This document shows positions 3,358 to 57,132 of a stretch of DNA of 64,000 nucleotides, piece after piece. The stretch is from Candidatus Acidiferrum sp. GTDB lineage: Bacteria; Acidobacteriota; Terriglobia; Acidiferrales; UBA7541. Under the pieces are notes generated by a model. It saw nothing but the letters and a program-made list of their open reading frames with translations. It was not told where the DNA came from and searched no databases. The stretch covers positions 7,466 to 71,465 of the forward strand of contig DASXPD010000129.1 of the NCBI GenBank assembly GCA_036493835.1, read 5' to 3'. The translations under genes and the position numbers were made by a program. Positions within the stretch are counted from its first letter, which is position 1; every line of letters begins with the position of its first letter.

Positions 3358-5306
3358 TTCATGGCTCCTGAGGATGCGGATGCTGTCGACGCGGTCGCGG
3401 GAAGGATGCTGATCGCCACGCTCGACGGATATTTTTGCGAGCGATAGATGCGCTGCGTCGCCGACTGAAAGTCGGATTCCTTCGCTTCAAAAATATTCGG
3501 CACAAATTTTTGCGGGTTGCGATCGATCAATGGGAACCAGGTGCTTTGTACTTGCACCATGATGCGATGCCCCTTTTTGAAGACATGGTTGGCCGTGTGC
3601 AGATCGACGGTAAACGGCGTGACGGTGTTCGGCTTGATCGGCTCAGGCTTTTCGAACGAATTGCGGAAGCGCCCGCGAAAGACTTCGTCGGCAATCATCA
3701 ACTCGTAGCCGGACAGCTTCCAGTCCTGCGGCATCGATTCGGGATAGACGTCGATGAGCTTGACGATCCAGTCGGCATCGCTGCCGGTCGTCGATGCGAA
3801 AAGTTTTGCGGTGACCTGGCCGGCGAGGGTGACGTCGTCGGTGAGCGTGTCGGTTTGCCAGGTCAGCACGTCGGGACGGCGATCGACGAAGCGCTGATCT
3901 TGCACCAACCACGTGAACCAGCTGCCTGGATGATCTTCCGGATAAGTCATGTCGATGGGGCGCTGGCGGTACGGAACCGGATGCGCGGGATCGCTGACGT
4001 AGGAATCGAAGGCAGCATCGTCCGATTTTCCGGTTACAGACGACGGCGCATCGAAAGAGAGCTTTCCGTCTTCACGGAAATAAAGGTTGCGCGTTTGCGC
4101 TTCACGTGGCGGCCACGCGGTGAAGGAAGACCACGTTTCGCTACCCGTCTGGTAGAGCGTCGCTTCTTTCACGGGAAGCGTGCCTTTGTCCTTCAGCCAG
4201 TACGCAAACCACGGCGCTTCAATTTTCTGGCGGAAATACAGCGCGGTGTCGTTGCCGAAAGGAATTGCCCCAAGAGAATTGCCTTTCCCGCGCGCCCACC
4301 CGCCGTGATTCCACGGACCGGCGACGAGAAAATTGAGATGGTTCGGGTCGTTTTTCTCCATCAGCTCGTAAATTTTCATCGGTCCGTAAAAATCTTCCTG
4401 GTCCCACCATCCCGCGACGTTCAGATTGGGCACTTTTGGTTTGGTAAGGATGTACGGCATCGCCTCTGACTTCCAGAATTCATCGTAGTTCGGGTGCGTG
4501 ACGAAGTTGGTCCACGTCGGAATCGATCCGTGCGTGTATTTCGCGTCGGCGTTCGAAAGCGGACCGAGCCGGAGATACCACTCGTAAGTGTCGAAGCGAT
4601 CGAAGGCGAACGCGAAGTTCGTCTTGTCGGTCTCCATCATCGTCGAATACTCGAATCCATAGCTAAGGCGGAACGCTCCGTTGTGATGGAAATCGTCGCC
4701 AAGAAACATGTCGGCGGGTGAAGCCTGCTCCGAAACGGCTTTCAACGCCGGGTGCGGATCGAGCATGCCCATCACGGCGAGCCAGCCGCCGTAAGATATG
4801 CCGAGTAAGCCCACTCGGCCGTTGTTGCGTGGAACATTTCTTACGAGCCAGTCGATCGTGTCGTAAGTATCGGTGCCTTCGTCGATCGATTTCGAATCCT
4901 TCGGATCGCGGACGGGACGCTGCATTACGAACTTGCCCTCTGAACCATATCGGCCGCGGATGTCCTGAAAAACGAAGATATAGCCTTCGGCGATCATCTC
5001 TTGGTACCGAAAGAGTTTCTCGCTGTATCCGTTTTTATCGTCACTGGTGCCATACGGCGTGCGCTCGAGGATGAATGGGAGCGAGCCGGTGGCGTTTTTG
5101 GGTGTATAGATTTCGGTGTGGAGTTTGATCCCATCGCGCGCTGGGATCATGACTTCGATTTTGTCGAAGAGTTTTGAATAGTCGACGTCGGGGCCCGCAT
5201 TCTCTTGCGCGGTCGCGCCGAGCGGCAGAGTCAGCGCCAGTGCCAACAGAATTGCGACGAAAGAAAATCGCAGCAACGAGCCAAGCTTGATGCGTGTCTG
5301 GTGCAT
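3354..5306 (-). CDS. CocE/NonD family serine hydrolase, copy 2
   Basis: Same motifs with GISYGG; start moved to ATG 5306 (MHQTRIK, signal peptide); overlaps copy 1 start by 4 bp. Confidence 0.92.
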   Translation of the reverse strand: MHQTRIKLGSLLRFSFVAILLALALTLPLGATAQENAGPDVDYSKLFDKIEVMIPARDGIKLHTEIYTPKNATGSLPFILERTPYGTSDDKNGYSEKLFRYQEMIAEGYIFVFQDIRGRYGSEGKFVMQRPVRDPKDSKSIDEGTDTYDTIDWLVRNVPRNNGRVGLLGISYGGWLAVMGMLDPHPALKAVSEQASPADMFLGDDFHHNGAFRLSYGFEYSTMMETDKTNFAFAFDRFDTYEWYLRLGPLSNADAKYTHGSIPTWTNFVTHPNYDEFWKSEAMPYILTKPKVPNLNVAGWWDQEDFYGPMKIYELMEKNDPNHLNFLVAGPWNHGGWARGKGNSLGAIPFGNDTALYFRQKIEAPWFAYWLKDKGTLPVKEATLYQTGSETWSSFTAWPPREAQTRNLYFREDGKLSFDAPSSVTGKSDDAAFDSYVSDPAHPVPYRQRPIDMTYPEDHPGSWFTWLVQDQRFVDRRPDVLTWQTDTLTDDVTLAGQVTAKLFASTTGSDADWIVKLIDVYPESMPQDWKLSGYELMIADEVFRGRFRNSFEKPEPIKPNTVTPFTVDLHTANHVFKKGHRIMVQVQSTWFPLIDRNPQKFVPNIFEAKESDFQSATQRIYRSQKYPSSVAISILPATASTASASSGAMN

Positions 5307-50263: not shown

Positions 50264-51622
50264 ATGTCGACTGCTACTCAAACCGGGCGCGAACCGTTCA
50301 ACTCTTGGGACAAATTTCTGGACCGCGTAAAGTCCAGAGTCAGCATCAACACATTCACCACCTGGTTTCAGCCTACGCGCTTGAATCGCGCCGAGGGCGA
50401 CACGCTCTTCATTCAGATTCCGAGCACGGTGTTCCGCAACGTGCTGACGCGCACGTACGGCGAGATCGTCAAAGCCGTTTTCCACGAGCTCGGCACGCCG
50501 AATACGCGCGTGCAGTATGTCTGCACCGAAGAAGAGGCTGCTGCCGTCGTTCCCGCCGCGCCCGCGGTGCCCATCAAGCAGTCGAAACTCGATTTTGAGA
50601 GCAGCGACCACCAGCTGAATCCGCGCTACACGTTTGATTCGTTCGTCGTCGGCAAGTCCAATGAATTTGCGCACGCCGCGGCAAGAGCCGTGGCCGAGCA
50701 GCCCTCGAAGTCCTACAACCCGCTCTTTCTGTACGGTGGCGTGGGCATGGGCAAGACGCACTTGATGCACGCCATCGGGCACACCATCAAGAAGCGCAAT
50801 CCCGCGATGCGGCTCAGCTACGTCAGCGCCGAAAAATTCACCATCGAAGTCATCAATTCGCTGCGCTTCGATCGCATGATCACCTTCCGCGATCGGTTCC
50901 ACACAGTTGACGTTCTGCTCGTCGACGACATTCAGTTCATCGCCGGCAAGGAACGCACGCAGGAAGAGTTCTTCCACACCTTCAACGCACTCTACGAACA
51001 GCAGAAGCAGATCGTCATTTCTTCCGACTGCCTGCCGAAAGACATCAACTCGATCGAAGAGCGGCTGCGCTCGCGTTTCGAGTGGGGCTTGATTGCTGAT
51101 ATTCAGCCGCCCGATCTCGAAACGAAGATCGCGATTTTGCAGAAGAAAGCGGAGAACGATCGCTTTCCGCTGCCTGATGACGTCGCCGAGTACATCGCGC
51201 GCGCCATCAAGTCCAACGTGCGCGAGCTCGAGGGCGCGCTAACCCGTTTGATGGCTTACGCGTCGCTGACCGGCGCGGTCGTATCGCTCGCCACTGCGCA
51301 GCAGGTTTTGCGCAACATCATCGCGTCGCAGGAAAAGCGCGTCACGATCGATCTGATTCAGAAGCGCGTCAGCGAACACTTCAATTTGCGCGAGCAGGAT
51401 CTGAAGGTCCGCAGCAATACCCGCGCAATCGCGTTCCCGAGGCAGGTGGCGATGTATATCGTCAAGCAGCTCACCACCGCTTCGCTGCCGGAGATCGGGC
51501 GCCAATTCGGCGGCAAACATCACACGACGGTGCTGCACTCGATCCATAAGATCGAAGAGATGCGCCGCTCCGACAAAGACCTCAACCGCACGATCACGCG
51601 GCTGATGGACGCTCTTCAGTAG
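50264..51622 (+). CDS. dnaA: Chromosomal replication initiator DnaA
   Basis: YTFDSFVVG, YNPLFLYGGVGMGKTHL, DDIQF, RLRSRFEWG, GGKHHTTV. Confidence 0.99.
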   Translation: MSTATQTGREPFNSWDKFLDRVKSRVSINTFTTWFQPTRLNRAEGDTLFIQIPSTVFRNVLTRTYGEIVKAVFHELGTPNTRVQYVCTEEEAAAVVPAAPAVPIKQSKLDFESSDHQLNPRYTFDSFVVGKSNEFAHAAARAVAEQPSKSYNPLFLYGGVGMGKTHLMHAIGHTIKKRNPAMRLSYVSAEKFTIEVINSLRFDRMITFRDRFHTVDVLLVDDIQFIAGKERTQEEFFHTFNALYEQQKQIVISSDCLPKDINSIEERLRSRFEWGLIADIQPPDLETKIAILQKKAENDRFPLPDDVAEYIARAIKSNVRELEGALTRLMAYASLTGAVVSLATAQQVLRNIIASQEKRVTIDLIQKRVSEHFNLREQDLKVRSNTRAIAFPRQVAMYIVKQLTTASLPEIGRQFGGKHHTTVLHSIHKIEEMRRSDKDLNRTITRLMDALQ

Positions 51623-52315
51623 TTTTCGAAATTCCCCAATAGCTTGTTGTCTACGCTGGTGCGACCCGATCCTCCCGTCGGGTCGCGCAGGCAATCGCCG
51701 CATCATCCCTCGCGAAATACTGTTCTCCGCTTCAACTCCTCCGCCCCAATGTTGCAAACTTTCGTTCACTAAAACTCGCGTGCGAACCCGAGCGATTATT
51801 TTTGTTGCTGCTTACCCAAGCGTGCGAAAAAAATTCACTCGCACTCGACAAAAGTTCTCTGTGGAGAAAACTTGCGTAACTGTTCGGATTTACTGTGGAC
51901 GCCTGTGAGCGAAATCACGTCTCACGTGAGACCACGGCGCGATCGACAAAGTTTTCCTCTGTTCCCACAAATCGCCACTCGGACACCACACGCCATTCAC
52001 GCGCCAAAACAAAGGCGACAAAATCTTTTCCACGTTTCCACACCGATCATCACAACAACAAGGCTCCAATTTTTTTCTAAATCAAAATCTCTTGTCTTGA
52101 TGATGGTTTGCCCTTGCCTGTGAAAAATCCAAACACGCACGACTCGTGAAGCAACGCACGACCAGCACGAAACGAAATCCTCACATTTCCTCAACCCTGA
52201 CCGCTCGGCCAGGCCTCGTTCCGCTTTGTTCTTTCCTCAAAACCGAGTAGAGTACGGCAACAGAGTTACAATTAAAGAAGGAGGCGGCTGTCCGTCCCCC
52301 AGGGCCGCGTAAACA
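51623..52315. other. Probable oriC (dnaA-dnaN spacer)
   Basis: DnaA boxes at 51860, 52026, 52034, 52119; NAN trios 52045-52062; AT-rich tract about 52068-52095. Confidence 0.75.
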
Positions 52316-53467
52316 ATGAGCGCACCTGCAACCGCACGCGAGGATCACCAAGCGATGGAATTCAGCGTATCGAAGTCGGCGCTGCTGAACGAACTTAGCA
52401 CCACGCAGGGTGTCGTCGAACGCAAAACGACGATCCCGATTCTGTCGAACTTGCTGGTCGAAGCGAAGGGCGACAAGCTCAACATCACCGCCACCGACCT
52501 CGAGCTCAGCATTCGCACTTCGTGCGATGCCAAGGTGAAAAAAGAAGGCGCCGGCACGATCCCGGCGAAAAAACTTCTAGAACTCGTTCGCCTGCTTCCC
52601 GAAGGCGAAATCAAATTCAAGCTACTCGAAAATCACTGGGTCGAAATCGTCAGCGACAAAAAGAAATATAAGCTCGTCGGTATGGCGAAAGAGAATTTCC
52701 CAGCTCTCCCGGCGATGCCGCACACCCTGGTAAAGATCTCCGCTCCCGTGATGGAGAGCCTCATCAGCAAGACGAAATTTGCGATCTCGATGGAAGAGTC
52801 GCGCTACACGCTCAACGGCGGCCTGCTGATCCTCAAGCCCGACACGCTCGCCATGGTCGCCACCGACGGCCATCGCCTCGCGCTCGCCGAAACCGATCAG
52901 AAACTCGCCGGACTCAACGGCGAAATGAAAGTGCTCATTCCGAAAAAGGCGATGGACGAAGTCTCCAAGCTCGCCAGCTCGGCCGACTCCGACGCGCAGA
53001 TCGAATTTGCCAAGGACGAAAGCCACCTGTTCTTCCAGGTTGGCCATCGCCTGCTGATTTCGCGGATTCTCACCGGCCAATTCCCGAACTATGAAGCCGT
53101 ACTGCCGCGCGATAACAACAAGACCGTCACCATCGAGCGCGGAGAGCTCTGCGACGCAGTGAAGCGCGTCTCGCAGCTTGCCGACCAGCGCTCACACGCC
53201 GTAAAGCTCGCCGTCTCTCGCGACGGCATCGAAATCTCCGCGTCGAGCCCCGAATACGGCGAAGCGAAAGAAAATATCGAGAAGGACTACAAAGGCGATC
53301 CGATTTCGATTGGCTTCAACTCCAGCTACATGCTCGATTTCCTCGCCGCCGCGGCCGATGGCCCAATCAGCATCGAGCTGAAAGACGAACAGTCCGCCGG
53401 CCAGATGCGCCCACTCGCCGATGAAAGCTATCGCTACCGCTACATCATCATGCCGATGCGCATCTGA
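52316..53467 (+). CDS. dnaN: DNA polymerase III beta clamp
   Basis: TTIPILSN, ATDLE, VATDGHRL, GQFPNY, IGFN, YIIMPMRI; alternative start 52355. Confidence 0.99.
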   Translation: MSAPATAREDHQAMEFSVSKSALLNELSTTQGVVERKTTIPILSNLLVEAKGDKLNITATDLELSIRTSCDAKVKKEGAGTIPAKKLLELVRLLPEGEIKFKLLENHWVEIVSDKKKYKLVGMAKENFPALPAMPHTLVKISAPVMESLISKTKFAISMEESRYTLNGGLLILKPDTLAMVATDGHRLALAETDQKLAGLNGEMKVLIPKKAMDEVSKLASSADSDAQIEFAKDESHLFFQVGHRLLISRILTGQFPNYEAVLPRDNNKTVTIERGELCDAVKRVSQLADQRSHAVKLAVSRDGIEISASSPEYGEAKENIEKDYKGDPISIGFNSSYMLDFLAAAADGPISIELKDEQSAGQMRPLADESYRYRYIIMPMRI

Positions 53468-53504
53468 CGGTTGATTTTCCTCGTGTTCACAATATAATTG
53501 ATAT

Positions 53505-54050
53505 GTGAATAGCAAACTAAGTATTCTTGGCCCGTCGACACCACTCGTGGCAACCAAGATTCGCATCATCCGCGACGTTAGGGTGATACTCGACGCCGAC
53601 ATTGCGAACCTCTACGGCATCACGACCTTCAATTTGAACAAAGCAGTCGCGCGAAACAGAGATCGGTTTCCAAGAGACTTCATGTTTCGGCTGACTGCGA
53701 AAGAGCGTGGAAACTTGATATTCCAATCTGGAATATCAAGTTCGCGTCGTTGGGGAGGCGCCCGCCACTCACCCTACGCATTCACCGAACAAGGTGTGTC
53801 AATGCTTTCGAGCGTTCTTCGCAGTGAGCGTGCAGTCAACGTGAATATCGCAATTATGCGTGCCTTCGTAGAGCTGCGGCGAGCGTTGGCTACGCACGAA
53901 GAGCTCCGAAAGAAGATTGAGCAAATGGAGCGGCGCTACGACGCGAAATTCGAGGTAGTATTTAGCGCAATCAAACAGATGCTTGAACCGCCGCCGAGGA
54001 CGAAATCGACAATTGGTTTTCATCCTGCCACGAAGCAACTCAAACCTTGA
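53505..54050 (+). CDS. ORF6N domain DNA-binding protein
   Basis: RDVRVILDADIANLYG, VARNRDRFPRDFMFRLT, PYAFTEQGVSMLSSVLRS, NIAIMRAFV, coiled-coil tail. Confidence 0.92.
   Translation: MNSKLSILGPSTPLVATKIRIIRDVRVILDADIANLYGITTFNLNKAVARNRDRFPRDFMFRLTAKERGNLIFQSGISSSRRWGGARHSPYAFTEQGVSMLSSVLRSERAVNVNIAIMRAFVELRRALATHEELRKKIEQMERRYDAKFEVVFSAIKQMLEPPPRTKSTIGFHPATKQLKP
53712..53742. repeat. Perfect palindrome inside ORF6N
   Basis: AACTTGATATTCCA-atc-TGGAATATCAAGTT. Confidence 0.95.
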
Positions 54051-54093
54051 GTGAGGTCAAATTTCCCGGCCGGTTTGCGGATTCACTTCGATC

Positions 54094-54124
54094 AACTTGA
54101 TATTCCAGTTTGGAATATCAAGTT
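54094..54124. repeat. Second copy of the same palindrome, intergenic
   Basis: AACTTGATATTCCA-gtt-TGGAATATCAAGTT. Confidence 0.95.
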
Positions 54125-54597
54125 CACTTATTTCGCCAAATTCACGCATATTTTTCGCAGGCTTCAGTACGCAAAGGAATATTCCAAGTAATTGAAAAAT
54201 AAGGCGTTAGCCGTTAGCCGACATGTTCGATTTGTTTGGGATTTCTGCCTAAATCAGTTAGAATGCCTGAGTAGCTTGTTTGCTGTTCGTTCCTCCTGTT
54301 TTTCGGTCCGCCTCGCGCAATCGAGGCACGTCCGCCAAGCCAGCGAAGTTCAGTTTTCAGCCCTGCGCCAGGGGCCGGAACATCGCGCTTGGAAATGAAA
54401 CCTTTCGAGCGCAAACACGTTCGTTAGGTTGACAAGTCTTCGCCACGTCTCGCTGCGCGAGATGGGATGGAGCAGGGGCCCTACGAGTTCCCGACGCATG
54501 CGTTCGCGCCTGCATTCGGAGCCAAAGGGTTAAGGCGACGCACGGAGAAGTCCGCACTCAGCCTTTCCTCGCTTCAAAGAATTTGAATCAGTCATAG

Positions 54598-57132
<2,535 letters not shown>

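Follow-up and report, generated by a model that had tools for sequence, protein, structure and literature searches.

A perfect palindrome within an acidobacterial ORF6N gene as a putative operator of the protein that it helps to encode

Why would a protein-coding gene carry, in frame, a perfect palindrome that is repeated a short distance beyond its stop codon? The question is raised by a 64-kb stretch of DNA from Candidatus Acidiferrum sp. (contig DASXPD010000129.1; 64,000 nucleotides, hereafter the window), in which an ORF6N-domain gene on the forward strand (53505–54050; 181 amino acids from a GTG start; Pfam ORF6N, PF10543) contains two 14-nucleotide (nt) arms that are exact reverse complements around a 3-nt center. 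The in-gene copy, P1 (53712–53742), has the sequence AACTTGATATTCCA-ATC-TGGAATATCAAGTT and occupies codons 70–79, where it is read as NLIFQSGISS (N70 to S79). The extragenic copy, P2 (54094–54124), has the sequence AACTTGATATTCCA-GTT-TGGAATATCAAGTT and begins 44 nt past the final base of the stop codon. An earlier interpretation made from the letters alone (the sequence-only reading) had described both palindromes, their identical arms and differing centers, and the QF, QI, and QT peptide variants that other registers and orientations would give; each of these descriptions was exact. The answer that we favor, with moderate confidence and on comparative evidence, is that the ORF6N protein recognizes the 31-bp palindrome as its own cognate operator, a site that falls where the gene encodes the wing of the predicted DNA-binding domain. 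The palindrome, its conservation across the family, the covariation of its arms, its independence of reading frame, and its covariation with a helix of the encoded protein are all direct observations.

The codons of P1 are rare in this 58% G+C genome, with ATA accounting for 5% of isoleucine codons and TCA and TCT for 5% of serine codons each, and the probability of the exact codon set, given the peptide, is 1.9e-9. Synonymous resampling of P1 produced a mean of 5.6 complementary pairs and never reached 14 in 200,000 trials. The match between P1 and P2 continues for one base (C) beyond the arms, and the two copies are simultaneously direct and inverted repeats of each other. The arm sequence occurs four times in the window, always within P1 and P2, even with two mismatches allowed; the expected number in 64 kb is 0.18, and four occurrences were reached in 0 of 100 shuffles. 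No further copies or half-sites were found above chance in the 64-kb window.

The palindrome is not peculiar to this locus. A scan for TTGATATTCCA-N3-TGGAATATCAA, using one genome per species, recovered the exact window-type core from at least 120 loci in many phyla, including Bacteroidota, Verrucomicrobiota, Acidobacteriota, Planctomycetota, Elusimicrobiota, and Ignavibacteriota, along with Melainabacteria, Patescibacteria, Spirochaetota, Firmicutes, and other groups. Of the 125 exact sites listed, 94 are in ORF6N genes at the position homologous to P1, 18 are immediately beside such a gene, and 13 belong to loci without a detectable ORF6N gene. Given that this sample was selected by the palindrome itself, a second sample of 80 metagenomic loci was gathered through other peptide motifs (EQG[VI][AS]MLSS and VN[IV][AE]IMR[AT]F), which supplied 83 ORF6N genes. 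The 31 nt aligned to window codons 70–79 averaged 12.2 complementary pairs out of 14 in these genes, compared with 6.0 after synonymous resampling and 3.4 in other in-frame windows of the same genes; 12 genes were perfect, and 61 had at least 12 pairs. When 9 or more pairs of a 10+3+10 palindrome were required, 242 of 286 distinct genes qualified, and almost all of these palindromes sat at profile positions 70–79. Homologs therefore display the excess palindromicity that the sequence-only reading had proposed to look for, and a P1 that is ancestral and held at the same codon disagrees with its suggestion of a mobile palindromic element tolerated in frame, although some genes do have extra in-frame units and some loci have arrays of diverse palindromes. 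Two or three in-frame units of different types, 36 or 54 nt apart, occur in the ORF6N genes of loci L033, L145, L158, and L182; the L033 gene (638–1355) has three tandem units in its wing-coding segment, 36 nt apart.

The trait also seems, from the genes compared, to reach beyond the ORF6N Pfam family. Among the RhuM gene examined and its N-terminal homologs, three of four carry a near-perfect 10+3+10 palindrome at codon ~65, just past the helix-turn-helix, with a sequence that differs from gene to gene (L284, NZ_CP041396.1 104065–104934; L105; L285). The Bacteroides ovatus rhuM gene has two further palindromes ~320 and ~370 nt upstream. A single-protein search for RhuM relatives in viral contigs returned one locus only.

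Variation within the palindrome provides a second line of evidence. The consensus half-site is yTTGA-nn-T-nn-CA, in which arm positions 8, 9, 11, and 12 vary and their partners change in step: pair counts are GC 43, TA 15, and AT 9 at positions 8/24; GC 45 and AT 25 at 9/23; CG 37, TA 29, and GC 6 at 11/21; and CG 42, AT 27, and GC 9 at 12/20. The inner arms accordingly fall into the types TTCCA/TGGAA, TCACA/TGTGA, TCGCA/TGCGA, and TGCCA/TGGCA, and the encoded peptide shows coupled substitutions (I..I, R..T, and K..I; F..G, S..V, S..A, and C..G). Because both arms vary together, we read the "hypervariable" LIFQSGIS / LRSQFVTS / LRFQxGTS segment as the translation of different palindromes. The sequence-only reading had stated that this segment is hypervariable and that variants such as LRSQFVTS can be written as palindromes, and homolog DNA confirmed both statements. 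One subfamily, recognizable by …EVVANCDHL… or …ELVTNCDQL…, has a different wing peptide and carries its palindrome at the same place in another reading frame (GTCGCA-AAT-TGCGAC or GTCACA-AAT-TGTGAC); for this reason, we take the conserved object to be the DNA and not the peptide. The 3-nt center is free and A/T-rich, and the outermost two pairs are loose, a pattern that would be expected of a duplex site read by a symmetric dimer.

The protein changes together with the palindrome. In corrected mutual information over 230 non-redundant sequences, the coupled pairs 46–73 (z = 12.3), 46–76 (z = 10.3), 43–73 (z = 9.7), and 73–76 (z = 11.1) are among the strongest in the protein. Residues 43 and 46 lie in a predicted recognition helix (codons 41–50; 53625–53654, forward strand), in which F42, N43, and K46 of the window protein occupy the positions that track palindrome type. 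TTCCA is paired with N43/K46 in 170 of 187 genes, TCACA with [V/A]43/Q46 in 31 of 39, TGCCA with x43/R46 in 19 of 21, and TCGCA with R43/E46 in 9 of 10, while GG at arm positions 8–9 is paired with K42 in 62 of 72. The F42/N43/K46 of the window protein is the combination expected for a site with TA at positions 8–9 and a TTCCA inner arm. These helix–arm pairings are ordinary amino acid–base preferences, in which lysine or arginine goes with G, glutamine or asparagine with A, and glutamate with C.

Protein-internal contact, relatedness, and linkage, as ways of obtaining such covariation without DNA recognition, can be addressed from the same alignments. In the frame-shifted genes, the helix follows the nucleotides (TCACA with [A/V]Q in 6/6, TCGCA with RE in 2/2, and GG with K42 in 4/4); because it does so despite different amino acids in the wing, these genes argue against a purely protein-internal contact. 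On a neighbor-joining tree built with the helix and wing columns masked, palindrome class and residues 43/46 change on the same branch 33 times versus 7.2 expected, and GG and K42 do so 27 times versus 3.4 expected. Highly variable columns between the helix and the palindrome reach a normalized mutual information of 0.09–0.25 with the palindrome, compared with 0.51–0.59 for columns 43 and 46. Since the intervening variable columns do not covary with the palindrome, a simple linkage block appears unlikely.

The predicted fold is consistent with a winged-helix arrangement of these elements. The window protein matches ORF6N with 98.7 bits (gathering cut-off, 27.8; E = 2.4e-28), with residues 18–104 aligned to positions 2–86 of the 86-position profile; its start codon is uncertain, and the database entry starts at residue 15. 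No family in NCBIfam was matched by the protein, and a PDB sequence search with it found no solved relative. In the AlphaFold 2 model, two strands are followed by helix 30–37, helix 41–50, strand 60–62, an insert, strand 91–94, and helix 95–105; the insert comprises helix 65–75 and a low-confidence loop to residue 90. Long predicted helices (108–144 and 147–160) span codons 108–160 (53826–53984, forward strand) and form the proposed dimerization region. The best Foldseek matches of the model in the PDB are the winged-helix DNA-binding domains of Ski and Dachshund, and they are weak (E 0.2–0.5). The predicted layout has a winged helix-turn-helix domain at the N terminus and a long helix toward the C terminus. 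We interpret helix 41–50 as the recognition helix and, because of the element order and the Ski and Dachshund matches, the palindrome as DNA that encodes part of the wing between strands 60–62 and 91–94.

Taken as a self-encoded operator, the palindrome would work as follows. The protein would dimerize through its C-terminal helices, and each subunit would set helix 41–50 into the major groove of one half-site, yTTGA-nn-T-nn-CA. Residues 42, 43, and 46 would read arm positions 8–9 and 11–12, and the 3-nt center would be left unread. The nucleotides needed for recognition would then dictate residues 71–78, and because the site lies inside the open reading frame (ORF), the segment would look hypervariable and gene and site would be inherited as a unit. 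P1 would be the cognate operator; P2 past the stop codon in the window clade, or a copy in the 5' untranslated region in sister groups (P0), would probably be an auxiliary cognate operator. Binding at P1, with or without P0 or P2, would probably repress transcription of the gene by roadblock and/or looping. Binding, dimerization, and autorepression by either route are what we infer from the conservation and covariation described above. The sequence-only reading had listed binding of the protein to the palindrome of its own gene as one of three options. The family-wide palindrome, the arm covariation, and the helix co-evolution favor that option, and its account of how site and specificity are coupled requires revision: the tracking residues sit in the predicted recognition helix, ~80 nt upstream, and not solely in the palindrome-encoded peptide, and the frame-shifted subfamily follows the nucleotides and not the encoded amino acids.

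The genomic setting of the window gene bears on the role of P2. The ORF6N gene lies between dnaN (52316–53467) and gyrB (54706–57132), with dnaA upstream of dnaN, in the slot where many bacteria have recF. The dnaN–ORF6N–gyrB context occurs at at least 14 acidobacterial loci, whose DnaN proteins are 89–98% identical and whose ORF6N proteins are 61–89% identical, and three further homologs stand in the order dnaA–dnaN–ORF6N–gyrB–gyrA. The order dnaA–dnaN–ORF6N–gyrB(–gyrA) is common to a broad acidobacterial clade (50264–57132 in the window; L286, L291, L294, and others). Because the context is shared among these loci, we regard the gene as a long-standing, vertically inherited resident of the clade.

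Within this clade, the external copy matches the in-gene type in every group that has one. In group A (the window, L114, L035, L056, and L089, with L286 decaying), the in-gene TTGATATTCCA, of TTCCA type, is accompanied by a copy 362–382 nt downstream. Group B (L121–L123 and L291) combines an in-gene TTGAGGTTCCA with a copy of GAGGTTCCA type that lies 246–247 nt upstream, past a promoter-like site and ahead of the start codon. The upstream copy at L051 matches the type of its own gene, and group C (L124, L125, and L127) has the in-gene copy only. The perfect cognate 5' palindrome of group B, L051, and L291 lies 216–287 nt before the in-gene center. The neighboring copy that covaries with the gene, as envisaged by the sequence-only reading, is thus found in groups A and B of the window clade; elsewhere, neighboring copies are mostly of other types.

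P2 itself is conserved to a degree that its surroundings are not. Its core is identical at 22/22 bases in the window, L114, L089, L056, and L084, with one mismatch in L035, and its flanks are non-coding and otherwise unalignable among these relatives, a contrast that indicates purifying selection on P2. At L084 (~4330–4392, reverse strand), the ORF6N gene and its promoter have been lost through a clean deletion of ~600 bp, and a perfect P2 is kept 25 nt past the dnaN stop codon. The deletion endpoints lie ~14 nt past the dnaN stop and ~12 nt before P2; alignment with L056, its closest relative, identifies a plain deletion and rules out both an empty insertion site and a product of P0 × P2 recombination. 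The ORF6N gene of L153, in the dnaN–gyrB spacer, is broken shortly before the palindrome so that two ORFs result, and its upstream palindrome has degenerated (TTGAGGGTCCA-ATC-CGGAACCTCAA); this split gene is probably a decaying pseudogene or a sequencing error.

The center of the palindrome behaves differently from its arms. In P2, it is GTT in the window (54108–54110), L114, and L089, AAC in L056 and L084, and GAT in L035, where it is the reverse complement of the P1 center of that locus, ATC. The GTT/AAC pair is a flip to the reverse complement with the arms intact, and a gut-phage gene (L277) has likewise changed from AAA to TTT relative to L222–L267, with flanks 93% identical, converting SQNV to SHFV. 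These flips, of which there are at least two, are best seen as a mutational by-product of palindromy through hairpin or template-switch flipping, and they explain why Q/H74 and residue 75 vary together within the family.

Several observations weigh against a self-encoded operator. The AlphaFold 2 model is of moderate confidence (mean predicted local distance difference test score, 72.6; ~57–60 over residues 71–90). The helix–palindrome covariation may be partly attributable to within-protein contacts, and the frame-shift counterargument comprises eight genes; the neighbor-joining tree used for the co-transitions is rough, leaving room for modular recombination. Only ~27% of genes have an upstream copy and ~6% a downstream copy, and beyond the window clade, most extragenic copies are of a type other than that of the adjacent gene; the inner core outside matches that in the gene in 18/31 cases versus 11.2 expected, a figure inflated by related sequences. 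An array of nine different palindromes at L028 (Hanamia) poorly fits simple autoregulation. Finally, P2, with its 14-bp stem and T-containing tail, was caught by a crude terminator scan, and RNA folding predicts stable hairpins (−23.2 and −17.0 kcal/mol; z-scores of about −6).

The last two points are also those that recommend an RNA-level explanation, in which hairpins at P0 (5' untranslated region), P1 (coding region), and P2 (3' end or terminator) would control stability, translation, or termination, and copies do occur in all three parts of a single transcript. However, the enrichment of G-U pairs that would be expected of an RNA helix is not seen. The covarying columns contain almost no G-T pairs, and A-C exceeds G-T both in the genes overall (39 versus 25) and outside them (34 versus 17 at 111 distinct sites, oriented by the sense strand of the neighboring gene). 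Such exchanges are detectable in these loci, because an element upstream of gyrB, described below, shows G-U/A-U exchanges in the same material. As an intrinsic terminator, P2 was rejected: G-C pairs make up only 4/14 of the stem, a weak tail (CACTTATTTC) follows, and the T-tract is unconserved in L089, L056, and L035. Hairpins would not need the same sequence at P1 and P2 and would leave the helix covariation unexplained. We therefore consider RNA hairpins quite an unlikely basis for the palindromes.

The gyrB-upstream element is a separate non-coding feature of the locus (54327–54580; strongest block, 54435–54491). It is nearly invariant in 14 acidobacterial genomes while its surroundings diverge, with homologous stretches in L114, L084, L089, L056, L121, L125, and others. 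Its consensus fold has a predicted energy of −51 kcal/mol, and several of its pairs change on one side from G-C to G-U or from A-U to G-U. No Rfam, transfer RNA (tRNA), or transfer-messenger RNA match was found for it; it could represent a gyrB leader or a small RNA that has so far gone undescribed.

Nearer to the ORF6N gene, a strong promoter-like site (53471–53498, forward strand; TTGATT, a 16-nt spacer, and TATAAT, with 10/12 consensus matches) begins 3 nt past the dnaN stop codon and is conserved in L114, the closest relative of the window locus (83% identical in DNA). The sequence-only reading had also pointed to two lesser motifs. The near-palindrome TTGATAT-GTGA-ATAGCAA over the start codon (53498–53515) is present, with 6/7 positions complementary, and overlaps both the promoter-like site and the start codon; it is weak, and the equivalent stretch of L114 is no more palindromic. 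It may be a decayed upstream operator (P0). The "fused half-site" GGAATATTCCA (54176–54186) likewise exists in the window and is absent from L114, and for that reason it is probably due to chance and outside the system. Rfam and tRNA scans of 53400–54800 gave no relevant match.

Copies outside ORF6N genes were surveyed across the family. In unselected sets, a family-type palindrome lies within 400 nt upstream of 25 of 91 genes, mostly 20–45 nt before the domain start, and 19–36 nt past the stop codon of 6 of 93 genes. The upstream copies are mostly between promoter and start codon. Palindromes far from ORF6N genes number 5 per 372 kb, which corresponds to an enrichment of ~50-fold next to such genes. 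Arrays of two to nine different palindromes, spaced 27–85 nt apart, occur at L028, L001 (4805–4873), L021 (2275–3319), L083, L066, L187, and L080; they mostly adjoin an ORF6N gene, and L021 has no detectable one. The L028 array (3674–4082), two of whose nine palindromes are degenerate, occupies the 440 bp before an ORF6N gene, and array and gene lie between two methionine-synthase ORFs. Such arrays may be cross-regulatory inputs, decoys, or relics. Solitary window-type palindromes with no ORF6N gene within several kb were seen at L003 (5146), L117 (4445), L111 (1128), L109 (1841), and L005 (6947), of which that of L003 is 66 nt past a Bro-N/DinD-like ORF (identified by eye) and that of L117 is beside a toxin–antitoxin-like pair. 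Solitary palindromes may be relics of lost genes or sites for a trans-acting protein.

This distribution invites the suggestion that some other protein, for instance a host factor or one from a competing phage or element, binds the palindrome and that ORF6N genes merely carry it. The many extragenic copies that differ in type from the adjacent gene fit that suggestion, as do the 13 of 125 listed exact sites with no ORF6N gene nearby and the survival of P2 at L084 after gene loss. Against it, palindrome type covaries with the recognition helix of the same gene, no second conserved partner gene was seen in the neighborhoods examined, and the non-cognate sites are explicable by other ORF6N or RhuM paralogs. 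Some non-cognate "upstream" copies are indeed in-gene sites of an adjacent ORF6N paralog, and a network of cross-regulation among paralogs would explain non-cognate copies and arrays. Full scans for cross-matching extragenic sites found none in a 117-kb Bacteroides ovatus plasmid (three ORF6N genes and one rhuM gene) and none in a 36.5-kb B. finegoldii record. A site for some other protein strikes us as a rather improbable explanation.

A structural role, in which a DNA hairpin or cruciform serves recombination, replication, cassette movement, or another structure-specific factor and the sequence is not read by the ORF6N protein, would account for several features. Most copies are perfect and not merely consensus-like, with every arm position paired; center flips with intact arms point to hairpin or template-switch events; many different palindromes are found in arrays, and extra in-frame units in some genes; and ORF6N genes often stand alone between housekeeping genes. 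Such a role leaves unexplained why residues 42, 43, and 46 track arm nucleotides and why P2 repeats the exact sequence of P1 when any palindrome would do. In addition, the genes examined have no recombinase, HUH nuclease, or replication gene beside them, the L084 deletion endpoints lie beside the palindrome and not inside it, and the acidobacterial gene is inherited vertically at one locus. We judge a purely structural role unlikely. Two specific variants were also discarded. Resemblance to integron attC sites (AAC...GTT ends) fails because the palindrome is too short and lacks extrahelical bases and its outer two pairs are the least conserved; iterons of an origin, or proximity to oriC, do not suit a single site per gene and the unrelated contexts elsewhere.

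The palindrome might, alternatively, have no function: an ancestral quasi-palindrome in a permissive loop could be kept perfect by template switching, or a selfish element tolerated, with P2 a local duplication. The peptide does fall in a low-confidence, probably flexible region of the model that tolerates very different sequences, a frame shift, and extra units, and the center flips show that template-switch-like events occur. In-frame palindromic elements are also familiar from Rickettsia, where palindromic DNA is likewise read in frame and tolerated in surface or loop regions, much as some ORF6N genes accommodate extra units. The Rickettsia elements are ~100–150 bp long, occur in many unrelated genes, and are polymorphic between orthologs. 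By contrast, the 31-bp ORF6N palindrome keeps to the homologous codon within a single family, and its sequence covaries with that of the protein. An absence of function would also have to accommodate one codon position across many phyla with rare codons in high-G+C genomes, a P2 that stays perfect where its flanks have diverged, the roughly 50-fold concentration of copies beside ORF6N genes, and the helix covariation; moreover, the window has two copies only, so the sequence is not dispersed there. An absence of function is, on this evidence, very unlikely.

The remaining proposal of the sequence-only reading was that P2 serves as a donor for inversion or gene conversion. In the form of a programmed switch, recombination between P1 and P2 would invert or delete the 3' two-thirds of the gene, or P2 would convert P1. 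The copies are direct and inverted repeats at once, their centers differ and have flipped in evolution, and in L035 the P2 center (GAT) is the reverse complement of the P1 center (ATC). Even so, the proposal fared poorly. Relatives all retain the intervening segment (351–382 nt) in one orientation and with the ORF intact, an inversion would bring a stop codon immediately behind ...GISS, the neighbors dnaN and gyrB are not accompanied by a recombinase, and most family members have no second copy. What has flipped, now and then in evolution, is the 3-nt center only. We regard a programmed switch as extremely improbable.

The self-encoded operator has partial parallels among known systems. Operators within coding regions include lac O2 in lacZ and the purR operator O2 in purR. 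The ORF6N case would resemble them in having a dimeric helix-turn-helix repressor (as proposed here), a palindrome that lies past the promoter within an ORF, and a partner site within a few hundred bp (247–265 nt or 362–382 nt in the ORF6N loci) that could act together with it by roadblock and/or looping; a second operator-like site of the same type is provided by P2 in the window, L114, L089, L056, and L035 and by P0 in L121–L123, L051, and L291. Unlike them, the putative ORF6N operator is in the regulator's own ORF at a fixed codon across a huge family, is a perfect palindrome, dictates 8–10 residues, and changes type with the recognition helix. Another parallel is the O gene of lambdoid phages, which contains the iterons of the replication origin and in which these are type-specific. 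There, as putatively in ORF6N, a protein binds inverted-repeat DNA encoding part of itself, site and binding domain covary, and the site-encoding segment is a tolerant linker. The lambda origin, however, has four iterons and an A/T-rich unwinding region, whereas ORF6N has one palindrome per gene, no initiator domain, no unwinding element, and, in the window clade, a vertically inherited chromosomal gene. The parS site in spo0J/parB is likewise a perfect palindrome in the gene of its recognizer (putatively so for ORF6N) and near the replication origin region. ParB is a cytidine triphosphate-dependent clamp that acts on many parS sites in chromosome segregation; ORF6N proteins differ in having no ParB domain, two sites in 64 kb, and unrelated contexts elsewhere. 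No earlier description appears to exist of the fixed family-wide position, the perfect symmetry, the peptide that the site dictates, or the readable helix-to-base code; in the literature on ORF6N, PDC-S05, and RhuM, we found no description of an in-gene palindrome.

The window protein also has a connection to phage defense. It is matched over its full length by the PADLOC PDC-S05 profile PDLC04856 (E = 4.9e-48; profile positions 11–166 of 177) and matches the N-terminal half of the 306-position profile PDLC04869 (E = 6.4e-50). The window gene is a short form with a helical tail and without the RhuM C-terminal domain, and it is outside any defense island. Long forms, in which the ORF6N domain is followed by a RhuM-type C-terminal domain as in the long PDC-S05 profile, were seen at L101, L209, L210, L218, and L026. 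One PDC-S05 representative with a RhuM domain was reported to lower T7 and T5 plating ~1,000-fold in Escherichia coli (bioRxiv 10.1101/2024.09.26.614923). The window gene, as a member of this putative single-gene system, is a candidate defense gene. The PDC-S05 papers found describe no mechanism and no DNA site. PHROGs labels relatives of the protein as anti-repressors or transcriptional regulators, and cultured-phage records yielded only five weak, unannotated matches.

These connections suggest a wider reading, which we offer tentatively and consider possible but doubtful as a whole. ORF6N and RhuM N-terminal proteins would together form a very large repressor-like family with a self-contained, swappable specificity cassette. 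Its specificity code would comprise N43/K46 with TTCCA, [A/V]43/Q46 with TCACA, R43/E46 with TCGCA, x43/R46 with TGCCA, and K42 with GG, and the palindrome types would represent immunity groups. A resident copy would silence invading phages or mobile elements that bear the same palindrome in an ORF6N or RhuM gene of their own or in their promoters, arrays of foreign type would act as cross-regulatory inputs or decoys, and silencing of this kind would supply a mechanism for the anti-phage activity of PDC-S05.

If the palindrome is indeed an operator of the protein that it helps to encode, then the "hypervariable" segment of a very common domain, with at least 7,900 relatives scored in one search, would be the protein-level shadow of a DNA site, and constraint on the DNA would set the residues. 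A domain family with no solved structure or known target would gain a testable recognition code, and the candidate defense system PDC-S05, together with RhuM, would gain a first mechanistic handle. Because the site cannot be separated from the gene, the arrangement would be a compact way to keep regulator and operator linked through horizontal transfer. Annotation and selection analyses should then allow for non-coding constraint within ORFs, the marks of which would be rare codons, suppressed synonymous change, and paired amino acid substitutions.

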